From the NCBI GenBank assembly GCA_964448285.1, contig CAYUWG010000013.1, forward strand, positions 10,970-74,969: a stretch of DNA of 64,000 nucleotides, given 5' to 3'. This document shows positions 18,777 through 35,587 of this stretch, piece after piece. The DNA is from an uncultured Chromatiales bacterium (GTDB lineage Bacteria > Bacteroidota > Ignavibacteria > SZUA-365). Numbering within the stretch: position 1 is the stretch's first letter; the number at the start of each line of letters is the position of its first letter. The notes beneath the pieces were generated by a model, which saw only the letters and a program-made list of their open reading frames with translations, made no database searches and was not told where the DNA came from. A program made the position numbers and the translations under genes.

Positions 18777-18799
18777 CATTTAGCAATCTCTGAAAGAAA

Positions 18800-18826
18800 A
18801 AAGGGCGCGATGAGCGCCCTTTTCGT
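18800..18826 (+). terminator. rho-independent terminator after the TonB receptor gene
   Basis: aaaaaaGGGCGCgatgaGCGCCCttttcgtttt: a GC stem followed by a T-run, 25 nt after the stop. Confidence 0.6.
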
Positions 18827-18844
18827 TTTGTGTGCTGGGAGTTG

Positions 18845-18895
18845 ATTCAATGGAGCACCTTGCGCGAGAGAGCGTCGTTGTTTTGGTTGCTATGC
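18845..18895 (-). repeat. terminal partial attC-like site (R''/L'' half only), end of cassette array
   Basis: gagagagcgtcgttgttttggttGCTATGCgatg closely matches the stop-proximal half of the other inter-cassette elements (gagcgccgtgttgccgtttGCTATGCgctcg). It sits 13 nt 3' of the restriction-endonuclease stop. No matching core-proximal half is present. Confidence 0.4.
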
Positions 18896-18908
18896 GATGT
18901 GGTGGCGT

Positions 18909-19598
18909 TCAGCCTCGTTCAAGTCGCTGAATCTCGCTGTTGATCTGAATGAGCACTTCGGGATTGCCGATCTCCCCGTCTAGACTGAAAACAATGAAAA
19001 CCTTTCCGCCATACGTTTGAGTAAATTCTTCAAAGCTGGCTTTCATGCGCTCGGAGAGCGAATACCCACCGAAATTTGCTTTTGCGGTAACAGGTTTGAT
19101 TTGAATCCCGAAAGCCTTGTCTCCTACCCATCCTAAGTAGTCTATGTCCCCCGCATGATCCAGTTGAGGCGATGACTCTTCAAACGTGATGGATGGAAAC
19201 TTCTTGCTCAGACCATCAGTGACGACGGACTTCTCAGTGACATAACCGTCGTAGGTACGGTTAATTGTGAGATTGTAAATGAAATCGATGCAGTCGTCGA
19301 GAGTTAGTGTTCGGAATGCCTCTTGCCATTCCGGAATAAGGAACTCGGTAATCTTGGTATACAGCCGTTCACCAAGCTCTTGCAAACTTTCCTTTGTAAC
19401 CTTGTGCGGAACCTTCGTTTTTGTATGAGCGTGCTCAAAGTACCACTGTTCCCATTCCTTGAATGTCTTGGGTTGACACTCCCTAATGAGAGCCATTACC
19501 TCGCCGACCTTGTGTGTCTTTGTAAGACCCCATTTCCCATTCGCATAGTTCAAGACCATTTCTTTGGTCCCAAAATCCTTGGAGTATTTTTTAGGCAT
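18909..19598 (-). CDS. putative type II restriction endonuclease (PD-(D/E)xK-like), partner of adjacent methyltransferase
   Basis: 229-aa ORF starting at ATG 19598 (track start 19673). ATG overlaps the MTase stop by 8 nt (ctgcATGCCTAA), i.e. translational coupling. Candidate D...(Q/E)xK element GDIDYLGWVGDKAFGIQIKP. Confidence 0.45.
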   Translation of the reverse strand: MPKKYSKDFGTKEMVLNYANGKWGLTKTHKVGEVMALIRECQPKTFKEWEQWYFEHAHTKTKVPHKVTKESLQELGERLYTKITEFLIPEWQEAFRTLTLDDCIDFIYNLTINRTYDGYVTEKSVVTDGLSKKFPSITFEESSPQLDHAGDIDYLGWVGDKAFGIQIKPVTAKANFGGYSLSERMKASFEEFTQTYGGKVFIVFSLDGEIGNPEVLIQINSEIQRLERG

Positions 19599-20904
19599 GC
19601 AGTCCTGATGTTGGCTGAATAATAGTGAAGGCGAGAAACTTGTCCTTGTATTTGTAAGTGCGAACAACGTCAACGTTAACGAAGCCTGACTTGATCAAGT
19701 GTGCGTTCAGGAATGTCTTATTCTTGAGGTAAACGTAGGACAACAGAATCCCGTTCTCGTCATGTTTGTCCTTGTCGAATCTCAGGAAGACCCTCTGACC
19801 CTTCATCTTGGAATTCAGGAACTCCATAGCCTCTTCTCGACGTCTTGGCTCTTCGGCTACTCCAATAAGCCTGATCGTAAGCCCGTTGTTGAGTTTGAGA
19901 AGTTCAGGGCTGAGGATCTCCGTTACGTTATACAACTCGGCTCTTTCTCCATTATCGCCGTTCTCGATCTTCGAGCCGAACTTCAGCTTTCGAGGATCAA
20001 CCTTCTTGTCCAACTCGTGCGGGTCAGTAAACCTGTATGGAAGGGATTCAATGTCCTTGTCTAAGTTCTCGTGTGCCTGTTGTTGAGTAACGAAATCACA
20101 GGAGGCATCACCGAATATATCATGCTGGGAAATCTTCAATTTATTCTTGATAATTGGAGCGAATGAAGGGTTTATTTCATAGCCGATGGAATTCCTGCCG
20201 AGGTTCTTTGCGGCAAGCGATGTCGTTCCGCTTCCAAGAAAAGGATCAAGGACGGTATCGCCGACGAATGAAAACATTCGAATCAATCGCCGGGGAAGTT
20301 CTTCGGGAAACATTGCTAAGTGCTTGTCTTGGCGTTCGCCAGCAAAGTTCCAGTGCCCGGCAAAATAGGTATTCCATTCGTCTGTTGTGAGTTTGGAAAG
20401 TTCCTTCATCTCTTTGCTGACTTTTGGCGGGTCACCTAACTTCTTGAATATGAGAATGAACTCGTAATCAATCTTCAGGATGCCATTTCTTGGGTAAGGA
20501 AATGAACCCATTATTGAGGCACCACCGGTCGTGTTGGTTGTCGTTACCTTTTGCCAAATAATGGCGCCCATGTAGTCCATTCCGATGGTCTCACAGAACT
20601 TAGTAATCTCCGTCCTAATCGGGATAACCTTGTAACGCCCGTAATAAACGGAGCGGGCGAACTGGTCGCCGATATTGATGCAAAGCCGGCACCCTTTATG
20701 GAGAACCCGAGAGGACTCCTTCCACACAAGATTCAGATTGTTGATATAGCTTTCGTACGTATCGTGAAAGCCTATCTGTTTCTCGTCCCCATAGTCTTTG
20801 AGTTGCCAGTACGGCGGCGAAGTGATAACAAGGTGAACGGATTCTGCTGCGATTTCTGTCATTCGCCTTGCATCGCCGATTACTATTTTGTGATGGGTGG
20901 CCAT
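19591..20904 (-). CDS. beta-class N4-cytosine/N6-adenine DNA methyltransferase fused to a C-terminal SNase-like (thermonuclease-fold) domain
   Basis: Motif IV VITSPPYWQLKDYG precedes motif I VLDPFLGSGTTSLAAKNLGRNSIGYEI (beta-class order). C-terminal ~140 aa (LTIRLIGVAEEPRRREEAMEFL...YVYLKNKTFLNAHLIKSGFV) aligns with the staphylococcal-nuclease fold. Start moved to ATG 20904 (MATHHKIVIGDARRM). Confidence 0.85.
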   Translation of the reverse strand: MATHHKIVIGDARRMTEIAAESVHLVITSPPYWQLKDYGDEKQIGFHDTYESYINNLNLVWKESSRVLHKGCRLCINIGDQFARSVYYGRYKVIPIRTEITKFCETIGMDYMGAIIWQKVTTTNTTGGASIMGSFPYPRNGILKIDYEFILIFKKLGDPPKVSKEMKELSKLTTDEWNTYFAGHWNFAGERQDKHLAMFPEELPRRLIRMFSFVGDTVLDPFLGSGTTSLAAKNLGRNSIGYEINPSFAPIIKNKLKISQHDIFGDASCDFVTQQQAHENLDKDIESLPYRFTDPHELDKKVDPRKLKFGSKIENGDNGERAELYNVTEILSPELLKLNNGLTIRLIGVAEEPRRREEAMEFLNSKMKGQRVFLRFDKDKHDENGILLSYVYLKNKTFLNAHLIKSGFVNVDVVRTYKYKDKFLAFTIIQPTSGLHA

Positions 20905-20976
20905 ACTTCCTGAACCAATGTACTGAATCTCAATCACATTTGCTGGTTCTTTGCGCAAGAGAAACGCCACCAGTTC

Positions 20977-21266
20977 ACCTAATGCTCAGCGCAAGTACGC
21001 CGCTGTTATTGCCGTTCAGGAACGATACGTCGGAAGCCGCTTCGACGCATTTCTTCGCTGTTGGAACCACAAACCAATCCGTGAGCAAATCCGTTGAGTA
21101 GCCACAACTATCCTTCCTAAGCTTCAACCAAGCCATATCAACAAGTGAGCGCCGTTGTATTCGCTGCTTTGTGCCTTGTGCCTTCTACCACAACTTTACA
21201 TTTAGCCAAACCTTCATTCAACATCGCCAATAAAACGTGCGAGCGCCGTGTTGCCGTTTGCTATGC
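20977..21266 (-). repeat. attC-like inter-cassette element A (contains an internal tandem duplication of the stop-proximal arm)
   Basis: Left end ACCTAAT is a degenerate complement of the GTTAGGT core. The body has two tandem copies of ..accacaact..catatcaacaagtgagcgccgttg... Right end GCTATGC lies 28 nt before the rsgA stop. Similar to elements B, C and D. Confidence 0.5.
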
Positions 21267-21294
21267 GCTCGTGAGCGGCGGCCGCTTAGGTCTA

Positions 21295-22371
21295 TCAAGA
21301 CGAAGGTTTTCGCTTCTTAAGCTGTTCCACTGCAGTCTTTATCATTCGCCCAAATTGCTTGTCCTTCTTGCGTCTTTCGACGTAGGTCATCTCGTGGAAT
21401 TGGGATTCCCTGATCAATTTCATGTAACTCCGATACTTAGCTTCGCTTAGAGAGCCACTCTGAACCGCCACTAAGATCGCACAACCGACTTCGACAGAGT
21501 GCGTGCAATCATTGAACCGGCAGCGGTTCGAAAGTTCGTGGATATCAGAGAAACTGTCGTCAATACCGACGCTAACGCCCATCAATCCCAGTTCCCTCAT
21601 GCCTGGAGTGTCAACCAAAAGTGCTCCGCTGTTTAGGACTGTCATCTGTCGGCGCGCCGTCGTATGTCTTCCTCTGCTATCCTTTTCACGAACGGGATTC
21701 GTTTCGAATGCCTCGCAACCGAGAAGATGATTGAGAAGTGTGGTTTTGCCCACGCCAGAGGACCCAAGCAAGCAATATGTTTTGCCATGTTGCAGAGCCT
21801 GCCTGACTCTGTCGAGGCCCGTTTCAGTTTTGCTGCTGAATGCGATGATCCTTGTATTGATTTGTGCGTCTCGGATATCTGATATCCGTTTCTCCAATTC
21901 CTCGGCGCTGATGAGATCGCTTTTGCTAAGCAAAATGACAGGCTCGACATGGCCTTCATTGACCATTACGAGATATCGCTCCAACCGGCGGAGGTTGAAA
22001 TTGAGATCGCACGATTGCATGATGAAGGCGACATCGATATTCGAAGCGATCATCTGGTATTCAACTTTGTCACCGGCGGACTTGCGACGCAAGAAGGTTC
22101 TTCTTGGGAACATGTCATGAATGATTGCGAGTGTGCCGTCATTGTGGTACTGAACGAATACCCAGTCCCCGACGCATGGGAGCTCCTGGGTTGAGTCGGC
22201 AGAATAGAGGAGCTTGCCCGTTGGCTCCGCTTGAACTTCATTGTGCTCGTCGCGAACGAGGTATCGGTCTCTATCGACTCTTGTGACGCGCGCGATAGTG
22301 CAGTCTTGTAACGCAAGCCCCGCACGTTTCTCTTCAAACCAATTATCAAATCCGAGATCTTCTAGCTGCAT
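21295..22371 (-). CDS. rsgA: ribosome small-subunit-dependent GTPase A (RsgA/YjeQ family), cassette-borne copy
   Basis: N-terminal OB fold, circularly permuted GTPase with G1 LLGSSGVGKTTLLNHLLG and VDTPG, and a C-terminal zinc finger CRFNDCTHSVEVGC. Confidence 0.85.
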   Translation of the reverse strand: MQLEDLGFDNWFEEKRAGLALQDCTIARVTRVDRDRYLVRDEHNEVQAEPTGKLLYSADSTQELPCVGDWVFVQYHNDGTLAIIHDMFPRRTFLRRKSAGDKVEYQMIASNIDVAFIMQSCDLNFNLRRLERYLVMVNEGHVEPVILLSKSDLISAEELEKRISDIRDAQINTRIIAFSSKTETGLDRVRQALQHGKTYCLLGSSGVGKTTLLNHLLGCEAFETNPVREKDSRGRHTTARRQMTVLNSGALLVDTPGMRELGLMGVSVGIDDSFSDIHELSNRCRFNDCTHSVEVGCAILVAVQSGSLSEAKYRSYMKLIRESQFHEMTYVERRKKDKQFGRMIKTAVEQLKKRKPSS

Positions 22372-22416
22372 TTGGTGTCCTAAGTATAGTCAGTAAACAA
22401 GGCCGCTGCCCATGGC

Positions 22417-22619
22417 GCCTAACATTTAGCGCAAGGACGCCACTGTTTTTGCCTTTCAGAAATGCCGCGCACGGAGCCGCTATCAATAGACTAATTTCTT
22501 GCGGCGAAGTGCGCATACCAACTTGCGGCAAAAACCGTTGAGCGACCACAACTATTTTTCCCCACAGCTTTAACTGAGCCATATAAACAAATGGGGCGGC
22601 GTGGTTACGCCTGTTATAC
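22417..22619 (-). repeat. attC-like inter-cassette element B
   Basis: Plus strand begins GCCTAAC (complement of the canonical core GTTAGGC) 45 nt upstream of the rsgA ATG and ends GTTATAC 28 nt before the peptidase stop. The arms are mutually complementary (gcgcaaggacgcc / ggcgtggttacgc). Confidence 0.55.
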
Positions 22620-22646
22620 GAAAAATGCCACAAAGCCTTTCTCATT

Positions 22647-24065
22647 CTAATAGCGTTTCACGATGTCATCAATGGAGACTCCTTCAATCAGGAGTTGAGA
22701 AGATTCTATTCCATAGATCCACTCTTGGAAGAAATCACGAAGATCCCGGCTCGAGACGCGCTCGCAAAGTTTATAAAACTCTTGAAAGTTGATGACGCGA
22801 CCTTTGAACTCCAGAAGCATGGTTCGAATGATCGTCCTAAAGGTGCTTTCTCCAACGAGGCGATACAAAACATACAGGGACCAGGCGCCCTTCGTGTACG
22901 AATGCCTGCCGAGTTCTTTCGCCCCGTAGCCGGCAATCGGCGTTTCAAAAACTTGTCGGTCATACTCCGCCCATCGCACAAAGAGATCTCGACTCTTTTC
23001 CATGTCTTCCTCAAAAGCTGCCTCACCGCGAAATGCCCGGATTGCCAGAGCCTCAAAAAACGTCGCAAACGCCTCGTCGAAGTACCGACACCGCTGCACA
23101 TCTGCCGACGGTGTCGCATTCCATGAGTGTCCGATCTCGTGATAGGCTTCGGAAATTCTCGTACTGTCTTTGAATGCGGCCGCCGTTTGCAGGAAGTAGT
23201 AGTCGCTGGCTTGCGAACCCCATCCATCCGGAATTTCTATAATGGAATATCCCTTGAAGCTTTCGGGTAAGCCGAACATTTCGCTATAGAGCTTGATGAC
23301 GTCTTTCGAGGCGTTCATGACTAACCTCGCTCCGATGCTGTCCTCAGGCAGGTGATACACAACGAGTTGATCGGTCGGATTACTCAGAACTGTGAACTTT
23401 GCCACGGCAACGTCGATGCGCCACGTTGGTATCTTGCTTCGGAATACGAACGTTGCATTCTCTGAGTCGATCTGTGAATCGACCAACTCTCCCCCGCAGG
23501 CCGCACGGTAATCCGCCGGAACGGTTGCGGTTACTTCGTATGTGAATTTCGTGTCATTGGACGCTAAGGTACTGGCGAATGTCGGCTTGGCAAGGATCGG
23601 ATAGGCAAACGCGTCGGGACGTAGTAGAGAGTAGTTCTCATCTATCCGGTCCCTAACGTATGCCATCACTTCCGGATATCCGAAGATGAATCCATCGTAT
23701 TCCAAGACAACGGTCGTCGTGTCGTTAGGTCGAAGCGGAGTACGAAGGTTGACGATAACTTCTCTGGCCTGAAGAGAAGGTTCATCACGAAGTTGACCGA
23801 TATCCTGTTTGAAGTGGAGCGGTGTGCCGGTGCGATCGCTTACCTGTTTAACTTCAAGCAATCGGTACAGCAGAAAGGGGAGTTGCGCGTGTGGCTGATC
23901 GGTGATATTGCGTATTGAAAGCGTTGCCAAAATGGAGACGCGCTGCTCTCTGAGGTGAAATTGCACATTGAGTTTGTAGTGCACAACGGCAGGAAGGTCT
24001 GAAGCAGTCGCCGAAGTCATTTCGCAAAGAGAAACAAGTACAGTGATAAGGAATAGCCTTCTCAT
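22647..24065 (-). CDS. secreted M1-family-like gluzincin metallopeptidase
   Basis: Signal peptide MRRLFLITVLVSLCEMTSATA. HEIGHSWN...(18 aa)...E zinc-binding HExxH-x18-E motif. Start taken at ATG 24065 with an aaaggag RBS; the track start 24095 is TTG. Confidence 0.7.
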   Translation of the reverse strand: MRRLFLITVLVSLCEMTSATASDLPAVVHYKLNVQFHLREQRVSILATLSIRNITDQPHAQLPFLLYRLLEVKQVSDRTGTPLHFKQDIGQLRDEPSLQAREVIVNLRTPLRPNDTTTVVLEYDGFIFGYPEVMAYVRDRIDENYSLLRPDAFAYPILAKPTFASTLASNDTKFTYEVTATVPADYRAACGGELVDSQIDSENATFVFRSKIPTWRIDVAVAKFTVLSNPTDQLVVYHLPEDSIGARLVMNASKDVIKLYSEMFGLPESFKGYSIIEIPDGWGSQASDYYFLQTAAAFKDSTRISEAYHEIGHSWNATPSADVQRCRYFDEAFATFFEALAIRAFRGEAAFEEDMEKSRDLFVRWAEYDRQVFETPIAGYGAKELGRHSYTKGAWSLYVLYRLVGESTFRTIIRTMLLEFKGRVINFQEFYKLCERVSSRDLRDFFQEWIYGIESSQLLIEGVSIDDIVKRY

Positions 24066-24099
24066 GTGTCGGGCTCCTTTCGTGTCAATTTTCAAATGA

Positions 24100-24295
24100 C
24101 GTTTGCAGCAACAACGTAGCGGTTTATGCCGCTCAAAGATGAGCGCCGAAGGGAGCTATCAAAGGACCAATTCTCGGCGCGCGTAGGCGCAAGACCAACA
24201 CGCGGCAATAACAATGGATAGACCACAACGACCTTTTCCATAGCCTTAACTGCGCCCTATCAACAAAGGGAGCGCCGGTGTTACTGCTGTTATGC
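24100..24295 (-). repeat. attC-like inter-cassette element C (core-proximal 7-mer apparently deleted)
   Basis: Right end GTTATGC (24289-24295) contains the TAA stop of the HNH gene on the opposite strand. The body is similar to element B. At the left end, the cataacgt found at the same position in element D is missing (aatgacg---tttgcagc). Confidence 0.5.
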
Positions 24296-25189
24296 GTTCG
24301 TTGGTTTGCCGCGCTTCTTCCATTGTTCCTTCTTGAGCCTCTTCTCGAGTCTCTTGTGGCATCTGTCGTGTAAAAGGATAGCATGTGTAAGATCGTCAGT
24401 CTTACCACCTTTGGCGTGCGGAATGATGTGATGTGATGACGAATCACCAAATCGCATCTGTTTGCCGCATTCGCCACACAGTCCATTTTGGCGAAAAAAA
24501 AGAAGTCGTTTTTGCTCAGCATCATGCAGTCGGTCGGGGTCCCTGACAATAATGGGGTGAAGCCTTTTGAATTCTTCTATCATGATCCCAAGGCGATTTG
24601 TCAATGACTCAGAAGTTGTCAAGATTTTCGACTCTTGCTTGAACTGCTTATATCGTGAGAACAATTTTTTGGTCATGCCAGGTGGTGGGTCAACCTCGTA
24701 GAGCGAGAAGCTATTAAGGTTTCTTAGAAATTCCTTGCCAAATTCGAACAACTCATTTAACAACTGTGAATTGTCAGCACGCTGCTTTCTGAGCCATGAT
24801 ACAAGCAGATAGAAAGCAATCGATTCCCTGGGTGAGAAGGCCGTAAGCATCAGGTTGAGAGATGAATGAAGAACATCTAGATTGCCGATGAAGGCTTTGA
24901 CCTTCTTTGCAGGAATCTTCTTTTGGTATGACTTGACCCCCTTGACAAGCGTGTGGAGTTCTAGGTCAGGGAAGACTCTTCTTTGAAAATCACCTTCAAG
25001 TTCGATTAGCAGCATCTCGGCGGCAAGTTGTCTCCACCTGAATCGTTTGTCTTTTCCAAGAAGTGTAAAGAACTTATGTGTCTCACGGGTGTTCTTAAAG
25101 GTATCTTTGAATAGACCGCGATGAGCGCTGATCTTTTCTGCCTTGTTAAGTGGTGTGCCTTCCCTGTAAGCGTAGAAAGGTTTGAACAA
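24290..25189 (-). CDS. HNH endonuclease domain protein (DUF1524-like), C-terminal half of a GmrSD-like type IV restriction module
   Basis: GLCGECGKQMRFGDSSSHHIIPHAKGGKTDDLTHAILLHDRCHKRLEKR is an HNH motif. Overlaps the upstream DUF262 ORF by 44 nt in another frame. Confidence 0.7.
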   Translation of the reverse strand: MFKPFYAYREGTPLNKAEKISAHRGLFKDTFKNTRETHKFFTLLGKDKRFRWRQLAAEMLLIELEGDFQRRVFPDLELHTLVKGVKSYQKKIPAKKVKAFIGNLDVLHSSLNLMLTAFSPRESIAFYLLVSWLRKQRADNSQLLNELFEFGKEFLRNLNSFSLYEVDPPPGMTKKLFSRYKQFKQESKILTTSESLTNRLGIMIEEFKRLHPIIVRDPDRLHDAEQKRLLFFRQNGLCGECGKQMRFGDSSSHHIIPHAKGGKTDDLTHAILLHDRCHKRLEKRLKKEQWKKRGKPTNA

Positions 25190-25589
25190 TGTCTTCTTCC
25201 TTGCTCTCTGGATCGTGACTTTTCAGCTTCAAGTAGAATACGCAGTATGCGTCAAGTAGAGTCTTGTCTGGAAAGTCTAGATGAGAGTACTTGGTAATGT
25301 CCGTATCATCAAGGTCGAGTTTATCCAATAGGTAGTTATGGATAGCGAGTAGTCTCTGTTGACCGTCCAAAACCTCATACTGGCCGTGTTCGTTCACAAA
25401 AAGGACAAGGACACCTATGGAATAACGATTAATGATGGACCTGATAAGCTCGATTTTCTGGGAGTGTTTCCAAATATCCCCCCGCTGGTACTCCTGGTTG
25501 ATGAAAATCTTTCCGGCGTCGAACAACTTTGGGATTTGGGCAAGGACGAACTTGTCAAAGTGTATGTCAGGAACAGTTTGTTTAGGCAT
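25146..25589 (-). CDS. DUF262 (ParB-like nuclease fold) protein, N-terminal half of a GmrSD-like module
   Basis: Conserved VLDGQQRLLAIHNYL (the DGQQR motif of DUF262). 147 aa, shorter than a complete DUF262 domain. Confidence 0.7.
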   Translation of the reverse strand: MPKQTVPDIHFDKFVLAQIPKLFDAGKIFINQEYQRGDIWKHSQKIELIRSIINRYSIGVLVLFVNEHGQYEVLDGQQRLLAIHNYLLDKLDLDDTDITKYSHLDFPDKTLLDAYCVFYLKLKSHDPESKEEDIVQTFLRLQGRHTT

Positions 25590-25628: not shown

Positions 25629-25755
25629 GCATAACGTTTTGCAGCTACCCGAAGGTTTTAGAAGCACTAAACTGTCAATCTGCACTAAAGCTGAATAGAA
25701 GCACGAACCTTCAATTAACCACGTCACCGCCACTTTTGGGTAGGTGCTGTTATGT
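25629..25755 (-). repeat. attC-like inter-cassette element D (127 bp, best-preserved palindrome)
   Basis: Plus strand GCATAACgttttgcagCTACCCgaagg ... GGGTAGgtgctGTTATGT. The arms are reverse-complementary (L'/L'' gcagctaccc / gggtaggtgctg). It ends 12 nt before the stop of the 153-aa gene and 39 nt before the DUF262 ATG. Confidence 0.55.
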
Positions 25756-25768
25756 GTAGTTTTTCTTG

Positions 25769-26185
25769 TCATTCGTCAATCTGAATTTCATAGGTCTTAC
25801 CATCTTCTCCATATACTGTTGCAGTACCATCTTCATCAATATCAGCATATGAAATATGGTCTTCGTTTAAGTAGCCGTCATTTGGGAAGTTAATTTGAAC
25901 GACTTGACAGTCTTGAACATCAACGTCAAGCGTGTATGTTGCAGAGTATCCTGTTTCAGGATTATTGTAGTCGACAGTTGCTGAATAAGTTCCATCTTCA
26001 AATTTACAGTCTGATTTATACTCACTTGTTCCATCGCTCTCATCATTATTTTCATCTTCATAATCAGACGAATTTGAATATGAACTTGAATTATCGCTTC
26101 TTTTTTTGTTCTCCGATTTCGAGGAGCAAGAAGACATTTGACTAATTAAAGTCAGAAAGCAAATAAAAATTATTGTCTGTTTCAT
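25769..26185 (-). CDS. small acidic lipoprotein (hypothetical)
   Basis: Signal peptide MKQTIIFICFLTLISQMSSCSS (lipobox). D/E/S-rich mature region. Gene is AT-rich. Start chosen at the internal ATG that begins the signal peptide. Confidence 0.5.
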   Translation of the reverse strand: MKQTIIFICFLTLISQMSSCSSKSENKKRSDNSSSYSNSSDYEDENNDESDGTSEYKSDCKFEDGTYSATVDYNNPETGYSATYTLDVDVQDCQVVQINFPNDGYLNEDHISYADIDEDGTATVYGEDGKTYEIQIDE

Positions 26186-26192
26186 AAATATA

Positions 26193-26615
26193 TTATTCAA
26201 ATATTTTGTCATACCATTTGGATACGTCATCCCTTATTAAATCGTAATACTTGTAAATTATTAATGCTAAGTCGAAGTCAGCACGTTTGGCTTTATACTC
26301 GTTTACTGTAAAGTATCCATAAAAATTACCTTCTTTGTCAACAACAACAGGCGGATTAGTCCCATAAGCATTCCAAGGCGAATTTGAATTATATTCATTG
26401 CCATATGTTCCGTATTCATTCCAAATGGATTTTGAATTATAGCTATTTCCATAGGTTCCATATTCGTTCCATATAGAATTATTATCATAGCTATTGCAAT
26501 TTAAGCAACCAAGATATTCATCGTGATTCTGTCCGCCATATAAGTGCAAAGTTTGAGCATACGTTGTTGTCTCAAAAGCAACAATTAGAAAAAGAAAAAA
26601 AAGTGTTTTGTTCAT
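26193..26615 (-). CDS. small secreted protein with SIWNEYGTYGN tandem peptide repeats (hypothetical)
   Basis: Signal peptide MNKTLFFLFLIVAFETTTYAQ. Three tandem repeats SIWNEYGTYGN(S/E)YNS. AT-rich. Start at the internal ATG. Confidence 0.5.
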   Translation of the reverse strand: MNKTLFFLFLIVAFETTTYAQTLHLYGGQNHDEYLGCLNCNSYDNNSIWNEYGTYGNSYNSKSIWNEYGTYGNEYNSNSPWNAYGTNPPVVVDKEGNFYGYFTVNEYKAKRADFDLALIIYKYYDLIRDDVSKWYDKIFE

Positions 26616-26700
26616 ATTCTTTCGTTTTACTGGTTCGTTAAAATTACACATAACTACCGTAAGTACGAACACCTTCGCATATACTGCCAATATAGGCGGA

Positions 26701-26720
26701 TAAACGAACATGTTCGTTTA
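26701..26720. repeat. perfect 20-bp palindrome TAAACGAACATGTTCGTTTA overlapping the intI-fragment stop codon
   Basis: Read directly from sequence: 9-bp arms and a 2-nt centre. Located between the recombinase fragment and the first cassette. Candidate recombinase-binding/attI-like site or terminator hairpin. Confidence 0.5.
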
Positions 26721-27251
26721 TTTCGATCCTGTAAGAACAGCCGTGTCTAATGGACTGACGATCTTGCCAAGCGACTTCTTGCTTACGTGCGTATAATTCT
26801 CCGTCGTCTTCGAGCTGGCGTGACCGAAGAGTTCCTCTATGTACCGGAGGCCAGTCCCGGCTTCCAGAAGGTGTGTCGCAAAAGCATAACGCCGGCTGTG
26901 AACTATGACTTTCTTGCGAATCCCCGCAGCAGCGACAGCCCGCTCGAAGACGTACTGGACACTCCGTTCCGACAAGTGCTTCCTGCCGTCCGCGCCTTCG
27001 AACAAGTACTCCATCGGCTGGCAGGTACAGAAAGACTCGCGCAACGGCTCCGAGGCAACGTAGGAGAGAAGGGAGTACATGTCCTTTATTCCTTTCGAGC
27101 CATGCAGGTGCAGGAGCATTCGTTTGCTGTGGCTGTGTTTCCTCAACCTCATCTCTCTCTCCACTGTCTCGAAAAACTTGTCGGCCATGTGTGGCCCCTG
27201 TGCAGGTTCAACAATCAGTTGTTGCAACGTTACGGAAAGAGTCACTTTCAA
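26718..27251 (-). pseudogene. 5'-truncated tyrosine recombinase with integron-integrase-like C-terminus (intI remnant)
   Basis: Catalytic C-terminal region HSRRYAFATHLLEAGTGLRYIEELFGHASSKTTENYTHV (HxxR...Y), followed by VSPLDTAV as in IntI1 (VRSPLDAL). GSKGIKDMYSLLSYVASEPLRESF is comparable to IntI1 [23 protein letters not shown]. Only about 177 aa are present, with no N-terminal domain and no upstream ORF. Confidence 0.65.
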
Positions 27252-29245: not shown

Positions 29246-32200
29246 TTATCTGGCAAGAATCAGTTTCTGTGTGCTGATGGACTGTCCATCGTTGAGCGAA
29301 ATGAGGTAGAGACCGCTCGGCAAATCCGATGGAGGCGTGAAGAAGAGCGAGTGCGAACCCGCTTCGAGATTGCCGCGATAGACGATTGCGACTTCGCTGC
29401 CGAGTTGGTTGAAGACCTTAAGCTCGACGAACCGCGTCGTCGGAATGGTCACTCCGATTTCCGTGCGCTGCGGTCCGTTCTGCGAAAGGACGTTCGGACG
29501 CGGTGCGGCGAGAGGATTGATGCCAAGGTCGGCCAACGTCGTCACACCGTCGCGCGCTTTCACGGCAATCGTATCGTCGCAACTCTCATCGAGCGTGACG
29601 AGTGCGAGTGACGGTTGAAATTCCGCATTCGTAATGGAGAAGCCTGCTTGCGCCGTTCTTCCGACGAGCACTTCCATTTGAACGCGCGTCAATTCACCTT
29701 CAACGAATGGAGCGCGAGAAACGGTAACGCGAATGCGATCGGGAGCGACGCGCTTGAATGTCGCTTCGCCCTGCAATGAGACGACCTGGCGCGGGCTGAG
29801 CGAATACACGTTGAAGCGCACGTCGAAATTCAATTCGAGATTGGGCGCCGTGCATTCAAGACCGCTGCGGAGGAACACCGGAATCTCGACCACGTCGCCC
29901 GGTCGTCCGGTGAGTGCGGCAGAGCCGCCTGTGACCGAGCTGCAACTGATCGTGACTTCCGGTTCTGACAGGAGAATCATCAACGGCACGATCGCTTCAT
30001 AGCGACATCGAGTGTCCATCGCACGAAGCACTGCGGTTGTCGATTGGTTCGCATTCGGTGTGTACCGCACCGTCACCAACGAACTGGATCCCGGTTGGAT
30101 CGTCAAGGTTTTGCTGCTGTCCACCAGCGAGAACGCTGCCGATCCTTCGACCGATAGCGCGAACGTCGTGATCGTAGTCCCGTTGTTTACCAGTCTCGCC
30201 TGCATCTCAACCGGTTCGTTGGAACACGTCGAGATTCCCTTAACGGTGTCTTGTGCGAATTGGTATTTCACGCGAAGCACACGACCCGCAAAAGGAACAG
30301 CGGCTACTTCAGGGAGACATCGCTGATCGCGGACGATAATGAAGTTCACAGAGCCATTGAAGAAACTCAATGCGCTGTCGATCGGCGGAGTCAACCCGAA
30401 CGTAATCGTTTGCGAAGCGCCGGGCGCGAGTCCGAACACGGAGTCGATCGGTGAGAACAAGCGGATCGGAGAATTGGAGGGTTTGATCAACGCTCCGATC
30501 GTCAGCGGAGTCGTTCCCGTATTCCGAACCTCGATTGTCGTCGTGAGGCGCTCGATATCCTCGTCACGCACGTTTCCACCGGGGCATACGGTAATGTCAT
30601 TGAACGTCGCTTCACCCGGTGTGACGGTGAACGCCGTATGCCGGAGTATCACCGATATCGGGAAGGAAATACTCCCGTCGCACGGCGCGGACGACAATGT
30701 AACGACGCCGCTGTACGTTCCGGGATTCGTCTCGACGAATCGAATACCGAGGTCCTTCGACTCTCCTGACTGCAACGTGAATGGGAATTGTCCCGGCGGG
30801 TCATATGCGAAGCCGAGCGGAAGAACCGAGCCATCGGTGATGGTGATGGGATCGGAGCCGGTGTTGTTCACTGTCGCTTTGAGTTGCTTCGATAGCGGTG
30901 TTTCGCAAGTCAGAACATCAAGCGGCGGAGTGACATCCGTGACTGAGAACTGCGGCTTTACTCCACGCCCACGCACGACGAAGGTAACGGGCTGGAGACA
31001 CACGTCGTCGGTGAAGATCAGGTTCGCCGAATGCTGTCCGGTTGCCGTAGGATTGTATCGAATCGGGAAAGCTTTCGATTGGCCTGCTCCAACGGTGACT
31101 CTGAACGGCGATGCGAGAAAGGCGAACGGCGATCCGACCGGCAATGGAGAAGAAGTAACGTTCAAGGTTTTATCACCCGTGTTCGCGATCACGAACATGC
31201 GGGTGGATGAACTATTGAGACAGACGTCGCCGAAGTCTGCTGATGCGTCCTCCTCCCGGACGAGATAGCCGGGTTTGTATCGCTCACCGATGAGAGCGAC
31301 GGGAAGCGTTTGCGTGCATATTCCACCGGAGCCTGCAAGGACGTTGAGGTACAACGAATCGACGAACGGACCGCCTGTTCCGAGTCGCGCCTGCACGGAG
31401 ATATCCAATCGTCCAAGAGAAGGAACCGCAACACCCTGCGACGGGAAGGGCGTTGCTCCCTGGAAGATGGAGTAACGCACAATCGGTGCCGACGCTGTAA
31501 CGGTGATCGGGAGGGGGCTGTTGTTCTGAAGCGTAATCGTTTGCACCGGCGTGCTCGATCCCGAACCGCAGTCCGTTATCACGCCGAAGTCGATCTGACC
31601 GGGAGTGAGCGTGACGCGGGGAAGAACGCGCTCACCCGACAGCGAGAAATAGACGCTCGTGCCGCACGGTTCACCGAACCATTGAACGCTTCCACCGAAC
31701 TGGTTTCCTTCACCAGTCGGTGGATTGAACAGGATATATCCATCGAACGGATTCCCGGCGCCCGGTACGATGACGATAGGCAAGGTGATCGTCGAGTCCC
31801 ATTCGAATCCCGACGGCAGATCCGGAAGTGAACGGAAAATTGCCGGCGCAGTGCCGGTGTTCGTGATGGTCACTCGGATTTTTGCATTCGGTTCACAGTT
31901 CACGAGAGTGACTGATGTGGGGTTGATGTTCGAAGCGAGGAGTTGCTGGCTGAAAGTATGTCCGCGAAGAGCAACGGTAGCGCTCAGGTTGCAGAGATTC
32001 GAGGCGATCGTGAGGGTCTGGTTGAACGCACCGCTCGTTACAGGGTGAAAGCGAATCGCAATGATTTTTTCCTCACCTGCTTTGAGCTGGAAAACGTTGT
32101 TGAACGCGTCGATCTCGAACGGTGCAGCGATGGTTAGTGTCATCTGCATGTCCGCAGTCCCGTTATTGACGATACGGAGTGATTTCGGTGCAGAGTATCC

Positions 32201-35200
32201 GCCGACGCAGGTCGTATCGAACAATTGCGGCGGAAGCGTTCCGGGTGCATTCACCGCTTCGACGAAGAAGGATGGATTCTGGCGCTTTCCAACCAAGTCG
32301 ATGAAGAACACTTCCTGGCATACACCGAAATCTGCCTCGATGCGCATGACGCTCTTGATCGAATCGCTTCCGGTCCGTTGAGCCTGCAAGCTGACAGTCT
32401 GAGTCCCGCCGCCGGAAACGGATGACGGCGCAGTTACAAGGACGATCCCGTTCGGAACCTCATAGCGAAGCTGAGCCGCTTGTGTGTGGTTGTTCGTCAG
32501 CGTGAGACTTCGCGTCGGAAGCGGATCGGTCGGGCACGCGTTGATCAATCCGAAGTCGAGCAGGTTGCTGTTGGTCGTGACCGTTGGCGCGATACGGATT
32601 CCCGTCAGGGTGAACAGCACTTGCTGGCCGCACTCGCTTGCCGTCAGGACGACGTTTTCCGAAATCAAACCACGCTGATTTGGCGATGGCGCAAACTCGA
32701 AGAACAATCGCGAACTATCTCCGGACGGAACGACGAGCGGGAAAGAGCCGGCATTCTTCAGAGCGAATCCTTGTCCGACGGCAGGAGGAGCCGGGAAGAG
32801 GATGTCCTTCGCACCTGAATTGAAAATCGTGACGACGAGGAGGTCGTTCGCCTTAGCCTGGCAACTCAACAGAACGGGTGATCCCATCGTCGTCGCGGAA
32901 AGCGTCGAGCGTCCGACTCGCAGTAATACGGGAACATTGAGGATTACCGGAGGCTGTCCATCGAGCGTAATGGTGATCGTCGTTGCATGAGTGCCCTGGC
33001 ATGGGATTGCAGAAGTGATGATGCTCACCGTAATCGAGTCGTCACCCGTGCCGTTGAGTTTCGAGAGGCGAATCCATGGTGCGGCAGCATTTGCCGACCA
33101 CTTGTAGCAAGAAAGCCCACCCGTGTTGATGAGGTAAAGCTTCTGTGGAGTTGGTGCGGTCTGGTTGACAACAAAAGTGTCCAGGGTGGAGACCGTGACC
33201 TGCGGTACTACCCGCTCGCCAGAGAGGATAAAATACACGCTGGTGCCGCACGGCTCTCCAAACCACTGGACGCTGCCTCCATAGATTCCGCCTTGGCCTA
33301 CAGGCGGCTGGAAATTGATAAACGCTTCGAATGGATTACCTACTCCCGGATTGACGATGACGGGAAGCGTTATGCCTGCGTCCCATACGAATCCGGAAGG
33401 AAGCGCTGGAAGATTGTGGAAGACGGCAGGCTGTGTCCCGGAGTTGATGATGCTGATGCGCACCTTCGCACCGGGATCACAATTGGCGAGCGTCACCGAT
33501 GCCGGTGATACGTTGCTCGCAAGAATCTGCTGGCTGAACGTGTGGCCTTCAAGCGTTACGCTCTGCGTCAGAGCGCATTGGTTCGCCGTCATGGAAAACA
33601 TCTGTGAGAATGACCCGCCGGTTGTCGGATGGAAACGCACGTTGATGACTCTTTGCTCGCCGGCAGGTAAGGCAAACACAGTGCTGAATGCATCGATTTC
33701 GAACGGAGGCGCTATAGCGAGAGTCATGATGAGATCGGCGGTTCCGTCGTTGATGATTCGTATTGCTTTCGGCTGCGAATAACTGCCGACGCACGTCGTA
33801 TCGAACAACTGCGGCGGAAGTGAACCGGGCGTCGCAACAGCTTCAGCGCGGAATGATGGATTTTGCCGCTTGCCGGTCAGCGCTACGGATATGATTTCCG
33901 TGCAGACTCCGAAATCGGCCTCGATGATGAGCGTGCTGTTTATTTGAGCAGCGCCCAATCGGGTTGGCTCGATACCGACGGTTTGTGTCCCCATTCCTCC
34001 GATGGAGGCTGGAGCAGTCGTGAGGACGAATCCGGTCGGTACCTGATACCGCAACAGAGCCGTCTGCGAATAAGCGTTGTTCAGAACGATGCTTCTCGAT
34101 GGCAACGGGTCGGAGGGACACGCGTTGATGTTTCCGAAATCAAGTTCGAATACGTCAGCGGTGACCGTCGGTGCGATGCGTGTTCCTCGCAGTTGAAACA
34201 GAACTTGTTGACCACATCCTGAAGCGGAGAGAATGACGTTTTCAACGATCAATCCTTGCTGGGTAGTGAGCGGTGCAAATTCGTAATACAGCCGCCCGGT
34301 GTCCGCCGGAGGAATGGTCATCGGGAATGCGAGAGGATTCTTGAGGACGAATCCGGGACCGACCGCAGGCGCGCTTGGAAACGTCACGGATGAAAGTCCG
34401 CCGTTGTAAACGGAAACGATGATGAGATCGTTTGCCTTGGGTTGGCAACTCAGGATCGTCGGATTGCCGATCGTATTCGCGCTCAACGATGCAGAGCCAA
34501 CCTGCGCGGTAACCGGAACCGGTATCGTTGTAGGATTCGATGCATCGGACGTGATGAGAATCGAACCGGCATGCATTCCCGGACACGGGAGTGCTGCGGT
34601 GTTGATTGAAACGGTGATCACGCCATTCCCGATTCCGGAAGAAGGTGAGATGTTGATCCAGGGCTGAGTTGCCGTCGCCGTCCAATCATAACAAGCGAGA
34701 CCGCTGTTCGAAATGATCAGCGATTGAGGAGGAGGAGTACCCGGGTTGACGATGAACGGGCTTAAGGATGAAACGGTGACGGGGAATTTTCTTCTCGCAT
34801 AGTTTGCCGTGATGTTCTTGTTGTTGTTCATCGTGACGTTGATCGTCGGGTTCGTCCCGGAGGCATCACCGCTCCAATGCGAGAAGACATAGCACGTATC
34901 CGGAGCGGGGAGATTGTTTGCCGTGAGAGTGACGAGCGTTCCCTGCGCATAGTCAGGTTGATTCGGAATGATCGTGATCGAACCCTTCCCGGCAGGGGCG
35001 ACTTGTGTGTTCAAGGTATATCGTGGTATCGGCGGACCTCCGTATGTGACGGTGACGAAGTAGCGATTCGTCCCAACGGGCAGAAGGATCTGATTGGTTG
35101 CGAACATATCGACGTTCACGATACTCGGATCGGGATAAGAGACGACGCGCGCTGCGGAGATTCCTATCGAAAACGGGAGTGTCCAAGCCATCCATGTATT

Positions 35201-35587
35201 GGTCGCGGCTGCTGCGCGTCGGGCGCGGACTTCGAAGGTGTACGTAATCGGCGGGGTAGTGAATATTCCTCGGAGGTCCAAGACTACTCCATTGCCAAGA
35301 AGAGATGGCGAACGTAGATCAGTGTCAATCAATCGGGCGTCGAAGTTACCCGGAGGCGGAGCCGGACCGAGCATTGCCTCGCCCAAACCACCATCGATTC
35401 CATCGGTTGCAGAAGGATTGATGCCTACTGTCAGAACCTGACTGTTTCCGATGTTGTCAAAGACAGTCAGATTCGTCCGGATATCCTGCGCAGTCAAACC
35501 TTGCGCAAGGAAGAACAACGCCGCTGCAAGCGTGATTATCCGACCAGTACCTCTTTGGTTTGTGGTTCTTGATGTATCGAAAAGCAT
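29246..35587 (-). CDS. giant (2113 aa) T9SS-secreted repeat protein, adhesin-like, Ig-like beta-sandwich repeats
   Basis: N-terminal signal peptide. C-terminal Por-secretion-tail-like domain (..GVTIPTTRFVELKVFNQLGSEVA...GLYLISLNDGQSISTQKLILAR). Internal tandem duplication of about 636 aa (aa ~268-905 vs 906-1541). S/T/G/N-rich composition. Confidence 0.85.
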   Translation of the reverse strand: MLFDTSRTTNQRGTGRIITLAAALFFLAQGLTAQDIRTNLTVFDNIGNSQVLTVGINPSATDGIDGGLGEAMLGPAPPPGNFDARLIDTDLRSPSLLGNGVVLDLRGIFTTPPITYTFEVRARRAAAATNTWMAWTLPFSIGISAARVVSYPDPSIVNVDMFATNQILLPVGTNRYFVTVTYGGPPIPRYTLNTQVAPAGKGSITIIPNQPDYAQGTLVTLTANNLPAPDTCYVFSHWSGDASGTNPTINVTMNNNKNITANYARRKFPVTVSSLSPFIVNPGTPPPQSLIISNSGLACYDWTATATQPWINISPSSGIGNGVITVSINTAALPCPGMHAGSILITSDASNPTTIPVPVTAQVGSASLSANTIGNPTILSCQPKANDLIIVSVYNGGLSSVTFPSAPAVGPGFVLKNPLAFPMTIPPADTGRLYYEFAPLTTQQGLIVENVILSASGCGQQVLFQLRGTRIAPTVTADVFELDFGNINACPSDPLPSRSIVLNNAYSQTALLRYQVPTGFVLTTAPASIGGMGTQTVGIEPTRLGAAQINSTLIIEADFGVCTEIISVALTGKRQNPSFRAEAVATPGSLPPQLFDTTCVGSYSQPKAIRIINDGTADLIMTLAIAPPFEIDAFSTVFALPAGEQRVINVRFHPTTGGSFSQMFSMTANQCALTQSVTLEGHTFSQQILASNVSPASVTLANCDPGAKVRISIINSGTQPAVFHNLPALPSGFVWDAGITLPVIVNPGVGNPFEAFINFQPPVGQGGIYGGSVQWFGEPCGTSVYFILSGERVVPQVTVSTLDTFVVNQTAPTPQKLYLINTGGLSCYKWSANAAAPWIRLSKLNGTGDDSITVSIITSAIPCQGTHATTITITLDGQPPVILNVPVLLRVGRSTLSATTMGSPVLLSCQAKANDLLVVTIFNSGAKDILFPAPPAVGQGFALKNAGSFPLVVPSGDSSRLFFEFAPSPNQRGLISENVVLTASECGQQVLFTLTGIRIAPTVTTNSNLLDFGLINACPTDPLPTRSLTLTNNHTQAAQLRYEVPNGIVLVTAPSSVSGGGTQTVSLQAQRTGSDSIKSVMRIEADFGVCQEVFFIDLVGKRQNPSFFVEAVNAPGTLPPQLFDTTCVGGYSAPKSLRIVNNGTADMQMTLTIAAPFEIDAFNNVFQLKAGEEKIIAIRFHPVTSGAFNQTLTIASNLCNLSATVALRGHTFSQQLLASNINPTSVTLVNCEPNAKIRVTITNTGTAPAIFRSLPDLPSGFEWDSTITLPIVIVPGAGNPFDGYILFNPPTGEGNQFGGSVQWFGEPCGTSVYFSLSGERVLPRVTLTPGQIDFGVITDCGSGSSTPVQTITLQNNSPLPITVTASAPIVRYSIFQGATPFPSQGVAVPSLGRLDISVQARLGTGGPFVDSLYLNVLAGSGGICTQTLPVALIGERYKPGYLVREEDASADFGDVCLNSSSTRMFVIANTGDKTLNVTSSPLPVGSPFAFLASPFRVTVGAGQSKAFPIRYNPTATGQHSANLIFTDDVCLQPVTFVVRGRGVKPQFSVTDVTPPLDVLTCETPLSKQLKATVNNTGSDPITITDGSVLPLGFAYDPPGQFPFTLQSGESKDLGIRFVETNPGTYSGVVTLSSAPCDGSISFPISVILRHTAFTVTPGEATFNDITVCPGGNVRDEDIERLTTTIEVRNTGTTPLTIGALIKPSNSPIRLFSPIDSVFGLAPGASQTITFGLTPPIDSALSFFNGSVNFIIVRDQRCLPEVAAVPFAGRVLRVKYQFAQDTVKGISTCSNEPVEMQARLVNNGTTITTFALSVEGSAAFSLVDSSKTLTIQPGSSSLVTVRYTPNANQSTTAVLRAMDTRCRYEAIVPLMILLSEPEVTISCSSVTGGSAALTGRPGDVVEIPVFLRSGLECTAPNLELNFDVRFNVYSLSPRQVVSLQGEATFKRVAPDRIRVTVSRAPFVEGELTRVQMEVLVGRTAQAGFSITNAEFQPSLALVTLDESCDDTIAVKARDGVTTLADLGINPLAAPRPNVLSQNGPQRTEIGVTIPTTRFVELKVFNQLGSEVAIVYRGNLEAGSHSLFFTPPSDLPSGLYLISLNDGQSISTQKLILAR

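Follow-up and report, generated by a model that had tools for sequence, protein, structure and literature searches.

The 64,000-nucleotide (nt) stretch of contig CAYUWG010000013.1 analysed here (the window), from an uncultured bacterium placed in the Ignavibacteria, contains a 127-nt imperfect palindrome, element D, between two minus-strand genes. Is this a recombination site of the kind that bounds integron cassettes (attC), and which enzyme would act on it? We conclude with good confidence that D is an attC-equivalent recombination site at the 3′ end of the first cassette in a chromosomal integron-like array, that elements A, B and C of the window are its long-form siblings and element E0 a stump at the far end, and that intact relatives would use an IntI/XerA-like recombinase on folded sites. 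The system in the window itself is dead or frozen, since its integrase is a C-terminal fragment, the AAC triplet is gone from elements A and C, and a cassette gene is disrupted.

Element D forms a hairpin not explained by chance

The initial annotation described D as a 127-bp palindrome whose outer and inner arms are reverse complements, and our analysis bears this out. D reads GCATAAC…GTTATGT; its inner arms, CTACCC (25645–25650) and GGGTAG (25738–25743), are exact reverse complements, and the outer 7-mers are complementary at six of seven positions, the seventh being a G·T wobble on the plus strand.

25629–25755, minus strand: element D, short-form attC-like site (sequence, folding, hairpin scan)
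25629–25635: R′ of D (GCATAAC)
25637–25640: TTTT bulge of D (plus strand)
25641–25652: L′ of D
25736–25747: L″ of D
25749–25755: R″ of D (GTTATGT)

Folded as single-stranded DNA, the plus strand of D closes end to end (−19.2 kcal/mol, z = −2.06), with the TTTT bulge on its 5′ arm; the minus strand gives no end-to-end fold (z = +0.33). A strict hairpin scan of both strands of the window, requiring TAAC, a spacer and a 12-nt stem followed by the second stem strand, a spacer and GTTA, with at least 10 of 12 Watson–Crick pairs, returned D as its sole match, and 30 shuffles produced one match in total (~0.03 expected by chance). The hairpin is real, and chance is ruled out as its origin. D is also the best-preserved site of the window. 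A MAFFT alignment with A, B and C misplaced D; judged by eye, its homology to them is limited to the arms, ACGTTT(T)GCAGC … TGCTGTTATG as in C. Short forms of D-like design are present in other genomes (loci L004, L018, L023 and L028).

Stem arms covary across a family of elements

A pattern taken from the conserved centre of the long elements matched 14 metagenome-assembled contigs, most of which bear the labels Ignavibacterium, Ignavibacteriaceae or Bacteroidota. With a profile of A, B and C we detected arrays in L005, L006, L007, L008, L012 and L014, with elements spaced 0.7–2 kb apart and up to six of them per 8 kb; nearly all open reading frames (ORFs) in these arrays are antisense to the profile strand, as in the window. 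Many matches that appear partial are complete elements of 100–130 nt without the inner hairpin, true truncations lying at array ends. Short forms measure 100–150 nt, and A, B, C and most family members 200–270 nt. The TAAC and GTTA cores are kept in 25 or 26 of 27 family elements (GCATAAC…GTTATGT in D, GCCTAAC…GTTATAC in B). One of the contigs, L006 (DATLXY010000434.1; 3.6 kb, four elements), is binned as the archaeon Nitrososphaera, most likely a binning error. Public assemblies repeatedly stop inside elements or right after the integrase gene (L001-L003, L018-L022, L030), implying that short-read assembly systematically under-represents such arrays.

Minimum-free-energy (MFE) folding alone failed to pair the ends of A, B and C, and their structure came only from comparative alignment. 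In an alignment of 27 elements we distinguished six nested stems, namely the R stem, the 12-bp L stem, a short 3-bp extension of the latter and three inner stems; five helices remained once these were merged for counting. Paired cells make up 86.5% of this alignment as compared with 78.1% in shuffles, a value that none of 500 shuffles reached; 23 stem pairs have changed on both sides, and the covariation score is 0.248 against 0.125 for shuffled alignments and at most 0.067 with slid partners. The L stem occurs in a few covarying versions, such as GCAGCAACAACG/CGTTGTTGCTGC, AGCGTAAGCACG/CGTGCTTACGCT and GGCGTAACCACG/CGTGGTTACGCC. Pairing is frequently lost at the outer R-box positions, the outcome expected from exchange at the core. 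Just two unpaired features are conserved: a GTTT that faces a single T at the junction of the R and L stems, and a symmetric C·C mismatch after the L stem. In the MFE fold of well-formed elements, the bottom (antisense) strand runs from the R stem through a three-T (3×0) bulge on the 5′ arm into 12 bp, and the coding strand has a 1×4 internal loop at this place. The bottom strand is the more stable one in 21 of the 27 elements and in D.

As a separate observation, the long elements share a conserved, covarying branched centre with three nested inner stems (22440–22600 and 24117–24275 in the window; alignment columns 47–330), followed by a sequence-conserved stretch, GCGGCAAAAACAATGGAGCGACCACAAC…AGCTTCAAC…GCCATATCAACAAAGGGAGCGCCG, kept across genomes of 40–54% GC.

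Hairpins on the transcribed strand between co-directional genes could also act in RNA, as terminators, mRNA stabilisers or processing sites, or could be palindromic repeats of the repetitive extragenic palindrome, bacterial interspersed mosaic element or miniature inverted-repeat transposable element type, with no part in recombination. Covariation fits RNA as well as DNA, and the structured centre of the long form would suit such a role. Profile and hairpin scans, however, place family elements only at 18.8–26.7 kb and nowhere else in the window, and in other genomes, over the stretches available around each match, they cluster in arrays downstream of an integrase, tied to that gene and to an attI-like site. 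Cassette duplications and cassettes shared across genomes break exactly at the GTTA/TAAC cores, assemblies break at the elements, and an Rfam E-value scan of 17–29 kb returned no relevant family. We therefore regard a purely RNA or repeat origin as very improbable.

An integrase without I2 lies upstream of the arrays

Past studies describe a helix specific to IntI, I2, as an insertion close to patch III of the catalytic domain (PMC4889954, PMC7790495). It is held necessary for cassette capture, and I2 and single-strand recombination are regarded as confined to integron integrases (PMC7790495); integron-finding software discards recombinases without the IntI-specific region (PMC4889954). The window carries only part of a recombinase gene, followed by a palindrome and an attI-like core:

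26718–27251, minus strand: truncated tyrosine-recombinase gene fragment (Pfam PF00589, 63.8 bits; TIGR02249, 82 bits with a cutoff of 265, profile positions 233–314 only)
26697–26714, no strand assigned: perfect 18-nt palindrome AAACGAACATGTTCGTTT, directly after the stop of the integrase fragment
26648–26654, minus strand: attI-like core GTTATGT (ACATAAC on the plus strand), 64 nt past the stop of the integrase and followed 33 nt later by the first cassette ORF

By tblastn, the fragment corresponds to residues 152–288 of a 298-amino-acid (aa) recombinase in L007 (50% identity). It lacks the N-terminal ~150 aa, including the first catalytic Arg, and has no IntI-type insertion. Among NCBIfam models, the full-length L007 integrase matches TIGR02249 (integron integrase) best, with 228.8 bits, under the cutoff of 265, in two separate stretches, the listed one ending at profile position 177; it scores 224.8 bits with the XerA model, above the cutoff of 220. 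The closest solved structure is VchIntIA (2a3v), aligned in two pieces, with 20 residues in place of the 59 of IntI. In an alignment with 14 relatives (57–80% identity), the I2 insertion was found in none of them, nor in the window fragment. In a second alignment the catalytic R, K, HxxR, H and Y are invariant. An AlphaFold model (predicted local distance difference test score, pLDDT, 82.7) shows residues 187–206 as coil and short strands without a helix, and Foldseek placed 2a3v first and archaeal XerA next. IntI is therefore the best match by NCBIfam model, PDB sequence and Foldseek alike, with XerA close behind: the enzyme is IntI-like and lacks the I2 region.

This gene is linked to the arrays by position and orientation. 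In L007 an array containing a reverse-strand RelE/Phd-like pair directly follows the full-length integrase gene and runs in its direction, and full-length integrases of ~300 aa lie directly upstream of arrays, or of a single element at a contig end, in L007, L018, L022, L023-25, L026 and L028. In all loci seen, integrase and cassettes point the same way. Six further integrase homologues extend this picture: three (P0038, P0109, P0078) are followed by a same-strand array of small ORFs with repeats of the same design, one (P0003) by two elements and then the contig end, and the contigs of two (P0016, P0096) end 50–800 nt after the integrase gene, one of them inside an element. Contig ends right behind the integrase are what repeats would lead one to expect. 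We then scanned 80 further metagenome integrase loci (43–61% identity) with the strict hairpin search and detected 36 hairpins in 160 kb downstream of the integrase versus five in 252 kb upstream, a ~11-fold enrichment. Read on the integrase strand, 25 of the 36 downstream hairpins have a 3′ spacer 3–4 nt longer than the 5′ spacer. Over the 80 loci, the commonest spacer pairs (s1,s2) are (1,5), (0,4), (1,4), (0,3) and (1,3).

An N|GTTAKGYG motif lies 30–70 nt past the integrase stop in most loci compared (L007, L018, L022, L023, L026, L032, L081), often preceded by a small palindrome. In relatives a ACGCAATATTGCGT-like palindrome occupies the position matching that of AAACGAACATGTTCGTTT before the attI-like GTTA; AAACGAACATGTTCGTTT is a candidate attI accessory site, operator or terminator. 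No Pc promoter was identified.

A tandem cassette duplication in L026 reveals the unit that moves. The order there is element X, cassette with element Y, the same cassette with Y again, and the next cassette, and all three junctions share ACGTTAAGCGTCATGC. What moves is thus the content of a cassette together with the element downstream of it, with the crossover in R′, the start-proximal GTTA, a position resolved to within the shared 16-nt junction. In L018, one cassette start is found after two different elements. We considered whether the coding strand might be the recombined one, with the extra bases on its 3′ arm as in canonical bottom strands, and rejected this, as the duplicated unit carries the downstream element and the bottom strand folds better.

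A RelE/Phd-like toxin–antitoxin cassette, on the strand opposite to the other cassettes, occurs in four loci (L004 1607–2102, L007 4883–5375, L008 2858–3350, L012 3343–3835). It is 76–83% identical among the four genomes, one of which is labelled Chitinophagaceae and has 40% GC, with homology running from R′ to the next R″. This cassette is ambiguous as to which element travels with the gene, because arm types differ among loci; the L026 duplication decided the matter.

These data bear on two further explanations. The elements could be ordinary attC sites of a canonical integron whose true partner is an I2-bearing IntI, elsewhere or lost, the ~300-aa recombinase being a Xer-like bystander. Complete integrons have indeed been reported in Ignavibacteriae by the authors of IntegronFinder, which may or may not be the present family (PMC9024848); the R boxes fit RYYYAAC/GTTRRRY, B reading GTTAGGC, and the crossover position is canonical. 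Yet in all independent lineages examined an I2-less integrase is found in the same position and orientation and is followed, past its stop, by an attI-like GTTA, hairpins are enriched downstream of precisely this enzyme, and the window's own fragment lacks the insertion as well. The sites, too, are without the extrahelical bases into which I2 would dock, their sole bulge being on the other arm (compare PMC5027507). We consider a canonical integron with a lost or distant IntI unlikely.

Alternatively, the array could work on duplex DNA as a Xer/dif-type module system, comparable to the pdif modules found on Acinetobacter plasmids, with short double-stranded cores at the element ends and only incidental hairpin potential. 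Known pdif sites are 28-bp duplex cores in which two inverted 11-bp arms flank a 6-bp centre, and they alternate in orientation. The recombinase is Xer-sized, passes the XerA cutoff and is without I2, which single-strand substrates are held to require (PMC7790495). Against this, the arms covary rather than keep a fixed binding sequence, inspection revealed no 11-6-11 inverted core in either arm, all sites are directly oriented, and the R-to-L geometry is kept only as a folded structure. A duplex system accordingly has a very slim chance of being correct, and an attC-equivalent site recombined by the linked integrase accounts best for D.

The array in the window is old and decayed

Between 18.8 and 27.3 kb all genes are on the minus strand and GC falls to 38–50%. 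The integrase fragment and the cassettes follow one another on this strand, with a repeat element in every gap between cassettes:

25769–26615, minus strand: cassette 1, two small low-GC (38%) ORFs (26193–26615 and 25769–26230) with signal-peptide or lipoprotein-like N-termini
24290–25589, minus strand: cassette 2, GmrSD/NsnA-like DUF262 + HNH defence gene (Pfam GmrSD_N, HNH; PADLOC NsnA 3.9e-18)
24087–24305, minus strand: element C, long form; R′ 24092–24100 TCAAATGAC, spacer GTTT 24101–24104, L′ 24105–24116, L″ 24276–24287, R″ GTTATGC 24289–24295
22647–24095, minus strand: cassette 3, secreted M1-peptidase-like protein (Pfam Peptidase_M1 7.8e-10)
22407–22624, minus strand: element B, long form; R′ GCGCCTAAC 22415–22423, spacer ATTT, L′ 22428–22439, L″ 22600–22611, R″ GTTATAC 22613–22619
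21295–22371, minus strand: cassette 4, RsgA-like GTPase (Pfam RsgA_GTPase 1.5e-48; TIGR00157)
21187–21273, minus strand: element A2, stop-proximal part only (R″ GCTATGC, L″, part of the centre; nhmmer E = 1.6e-5, profile positions 147–228)
20970–21184, minus strand: element A1, long form, both cores degenerate (R′ CACCTAAT, AAC changed to AAT; R″ GCTTTGT)
18909–20970, minus strand: cassette 5, type II restriction–modification pair (Pfam; PADLOC MTase_II 3.5e-181, REase_II 6.8e-94), comprising an N4/N6 methyltransferase (19591–20970) and a MjaI-like endonuclease (18909–19673)
18842–18896, minus strand: element E0, terminal remnant at the distal array end; stop-proximal arm …GAGAGCGTCGTTGTTTTGGTTGCTATGCG and a trace of the centre, no R′/L′ arm

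Elements A, B and C are ~210 nt each and 70–75% identical over their full length. In B, R′ reads GTTAGGC on the coding strand and eight of the 12 L′/L″ positions are paired. In C, the GTTATGC box contains the TAA stop (24290–24292) of the minus-strand ORF, as had been annotated from the sequence; the core 7-mer that the same reading held to be missing from C is present and mutated, C having TCAAATGAC-GTTT-GCAGC where the consensus is GCGCCTAAC-GTTT-GCAGC, a change of TAAC to TGAC. For element A, the degenerate core (ACCTAAT on the plus strand, that is, ATTAGGT) and the presence of two stop-proximal arms (in 20970–21184 and 21187–21273) stand, and the proposed tandem duplication is not demonstrable. 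The A2 arm shares ~80% identity with A's own arm and resembles elements of other genomes to the same degree, so that a juxtaposed stump explains it as well as duplication does. A2 is what remains of a second element or else an old duplicate; we rejected a recent tandem duplication, the second arm being no closer to A than to elements of other genomes.

Several signs of decay coincide. The integrase has lost ~150 N-terminal residues; the AAC triplet has become AAT in A and GAC in C; of the last element only a stump is left; and the GmrSD-like gene is split into two ORFs, 25146–25589 (DUF262 part) and 24290–25189 (HNH part), overlapping by 44 nt (25146–25189), probably through a frameshift, which fits decay of the array. 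Truncated elements like E0 close the arrays in L004, L010 and L017 as well. An independent assembly has, on a 46 kb contig, the same gene order from the GmrSD-like gene to the restriction–modification pair, and two further ones share its distal part; contigs of three other metagenome assemblies with the same locus stop inside element B or D. The suggestion of an old, sedentary array, made from differing decay states of the elements, is upheld by the truncated integrase, the mutated AAC in A and C, the broken cassette gene, the terminal stump and the recurring gene order.

Some neighbouring features deserve mention. The cassette 1 ORFs received no family assignment from Pfam, NCBIfam or PADLOC scans; within ORF 26193–26615, three tandem 48-nt repeats (26359–26502) encode a repeated Asn/Tyr/Gly-rich peptide unit of a small secreted protein, and GC there is 38% as compared with ~53% in the flanks. 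E0 adjoins the terminator of a convergent TonB-dependent receptor gene. Between that gene and the last cassette lies a GC-rich hairpin with flanking A and T runs (18795–18826, aaaaaagggcgcgatgagcgcccttttc), probably a bidirectional terminator marking the outer array border. A single minus-strand ORF encoding 2113 aa spans 29246–35587, some 2 kb past the integrase fragment.

A model for recombination of the folded sites

Beyond the site anatomy, covariation, integrase linkage, crossover position, absence of I2 and decay described above, we infer that the adjacent integrase is the acting enzyme, that its substrate is single-stranded and that the bulge has a role in the reaction. On the coding (minus) strand, a site reads R″ (…CMTAAC), just after or overlapping the stop codon, then 1 nt, a 12-nt L″, the centre, L′, a 4-nt spacer NNAC and R′ GTTAKGYG; the centre varies, being either short or a conserved branched module of ~130 nt. 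In intact relatives, the ~300-aa IntI/XerA-like tyrosine recombinase, encoded on the same strand immediately upstream, would exchange strands at the conserved GTT/AAC of R′. Exchange between two sites, or between a site and the attI-like GTTA just past the integrase gene, would then excise or insert one or more genes together with the downstream element. The predicted substrate is a fold with an R stem, a three-T bulge on the cleaved arm, a 12-bp L stem and the conserved C·C mismatch.

By analogy with integrons and CTX-phage/Xer integration, the site probably acts as a folded single strand, because covariation preserves the pairing of the arms and the bottom strand usually folds more stably. 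The asymmetric bulge is a candidate for setting strand and orientation, since the recombinase has no I2 and the sites have no extrahelical bases near L″.

A number of observations weigh against this model. Adjacency is what pairs recombinase with site, and 8–20 kb were examined around each match, so that a canonical IntI could lie elsewhere in these genomes. Among the more distant integrase loci, 21 have 2 kb or more of downstream sequence, and seven of these 21 had no strict hairpin. Covariation cannot separate a DNA hairpin from an RNA hairpin, and wobble pairs give no bias for strand choice (G·T versus A·C, 48 versus 39). Within the window the folds of the siblings are poor (z = −1.68 for B and −0.21 for C; no fold for A, z = +1.11). 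Finally, about seven of the 27 long elements are hybrids whose L′ and L″ arms differ in type, with 5–6 mismatches in the 12-bp stem (L005, L008, L012, L014); such elements are not producible by R-box exchange. Only about three arm types recur across different genomes.

Comparison with known systems

Canonical attC sites measure 57–141 bp and have 5–6 unpaired spacer bases per arm; near L″ their bottom strand carries two or three extrahelical bases, which dock into I2 (PMC5027507). With 127 nt, D is within this range, which the long forms described here (200–270 nt) exceed. The present sites differ in having no extrahelical bases and an unbulged 12-bp L stem, and in a spacer of 4 nt versus 1 nt that leaves a 3-T bulge on the cleaved (R′-L′) arm. 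The absence of I2 from the protein goes together with the absence of this DNA feature from the sites. Calling D an integron attC is therefore apt insofar as the elements are recombination-site-like hairpins at cassette boundaries of an integron-like array; "textbook", the word originally used, does not suit sites with an asymmetric spacer, a bulge on the opposite arm, no extrahelical bases near L″ and an integrase without I2.

The resemblance to sedentary chromosomal integrons such as the Vibrio cholerae superintegron, with its V. cholerae repeats (VCRs), is extensive. In both, an integrase gene is followed by an attI-like GTTA and an array of one- or two-gene cassettes, and an imperfect palindrome bearing TAAC…GTTA cores closes each cassette; within a lineage the repeats are homogeneous, a gene and its downstream site form the unit, the crossover is at R′, the bottom strand is the more stable, toxin–antitoxin and defence genes are among the cassettes, and assemblies break at the repeats. 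Unlike in these integrons, the integrase here has no I2 and, in all loci seen, is co-directional with the cassettes, and the central module is conserved across genomes of 40–54% GC.

In a survey of simple tyrosine recombinases, the insertion is described as 'not fully conserved' in the integron-like subgroup (Smyshlyaev et al. 2021, PMC8138268). In its passages on this subgroup, the survey calls the insertion essential for integron function and does not link insertion-less members to cassette arrays or a distinct site geometry (PMC8138268); the present integrases probably fall among those members. Our literature searches for I2-less integrons, proto-integrons or Ignavibacteria integrons returned no description of the present combination.

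It is conceivable, though we would stop short of calling it probable, that widespread cassette platforms of Ignavibacteria and Bacteroidota run on an IntI/Xer-intermediate recombinase that never had or has lost I2 and that recombines hairpins through a 3-nt R/L bulge, either as a living pre-I2 'proto-integron' or as an independent solution. If I2-less integrases do drive large natural arrays with covarying hairpin sites, the origin of integrons from Xer-like ancestors can be tested directly on natural proteins and sites, counts of integrons in Bacteroidota-related phyla are too low, and a second mode of strand and orientation choice, by a bulge on the cleaved arm, is open to study and engineering. 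For the window alone the outcome is more modest, namely a frozen array with defence genes.

Among Xer systems, the pdif/Xer-dif modules share an I2-less Xer-like recombinase and modules bounded by recombination sites; unlike them, the sites here are directly oriented hairpins of 100–270 nt with covarying arms. Integration of the CTX phage by XerC/XerD (an integrative mobile element exploiting Xer, IMEX) comes nearer, since an I2-less Xer-type recombinase there acts at attP(+), a folded single strand that mimics a two-arm core with an unpaired centre, and performs one strand exchange followed by replication (PMC7790495). It differs from the present system, which has a dedicated array-linked recombinase, many tandem sites, and cassettes rather than a phage genome as the exchanged material, with no dif or FtsK link. 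The architecture of integrase, attI-like site and array is present in the relatives and decayed in the window, with intI and attC each failing one defining feature. Its closest working analogues are integrons, together with the Xer-mediated integration of the folded CTX-phage strand.

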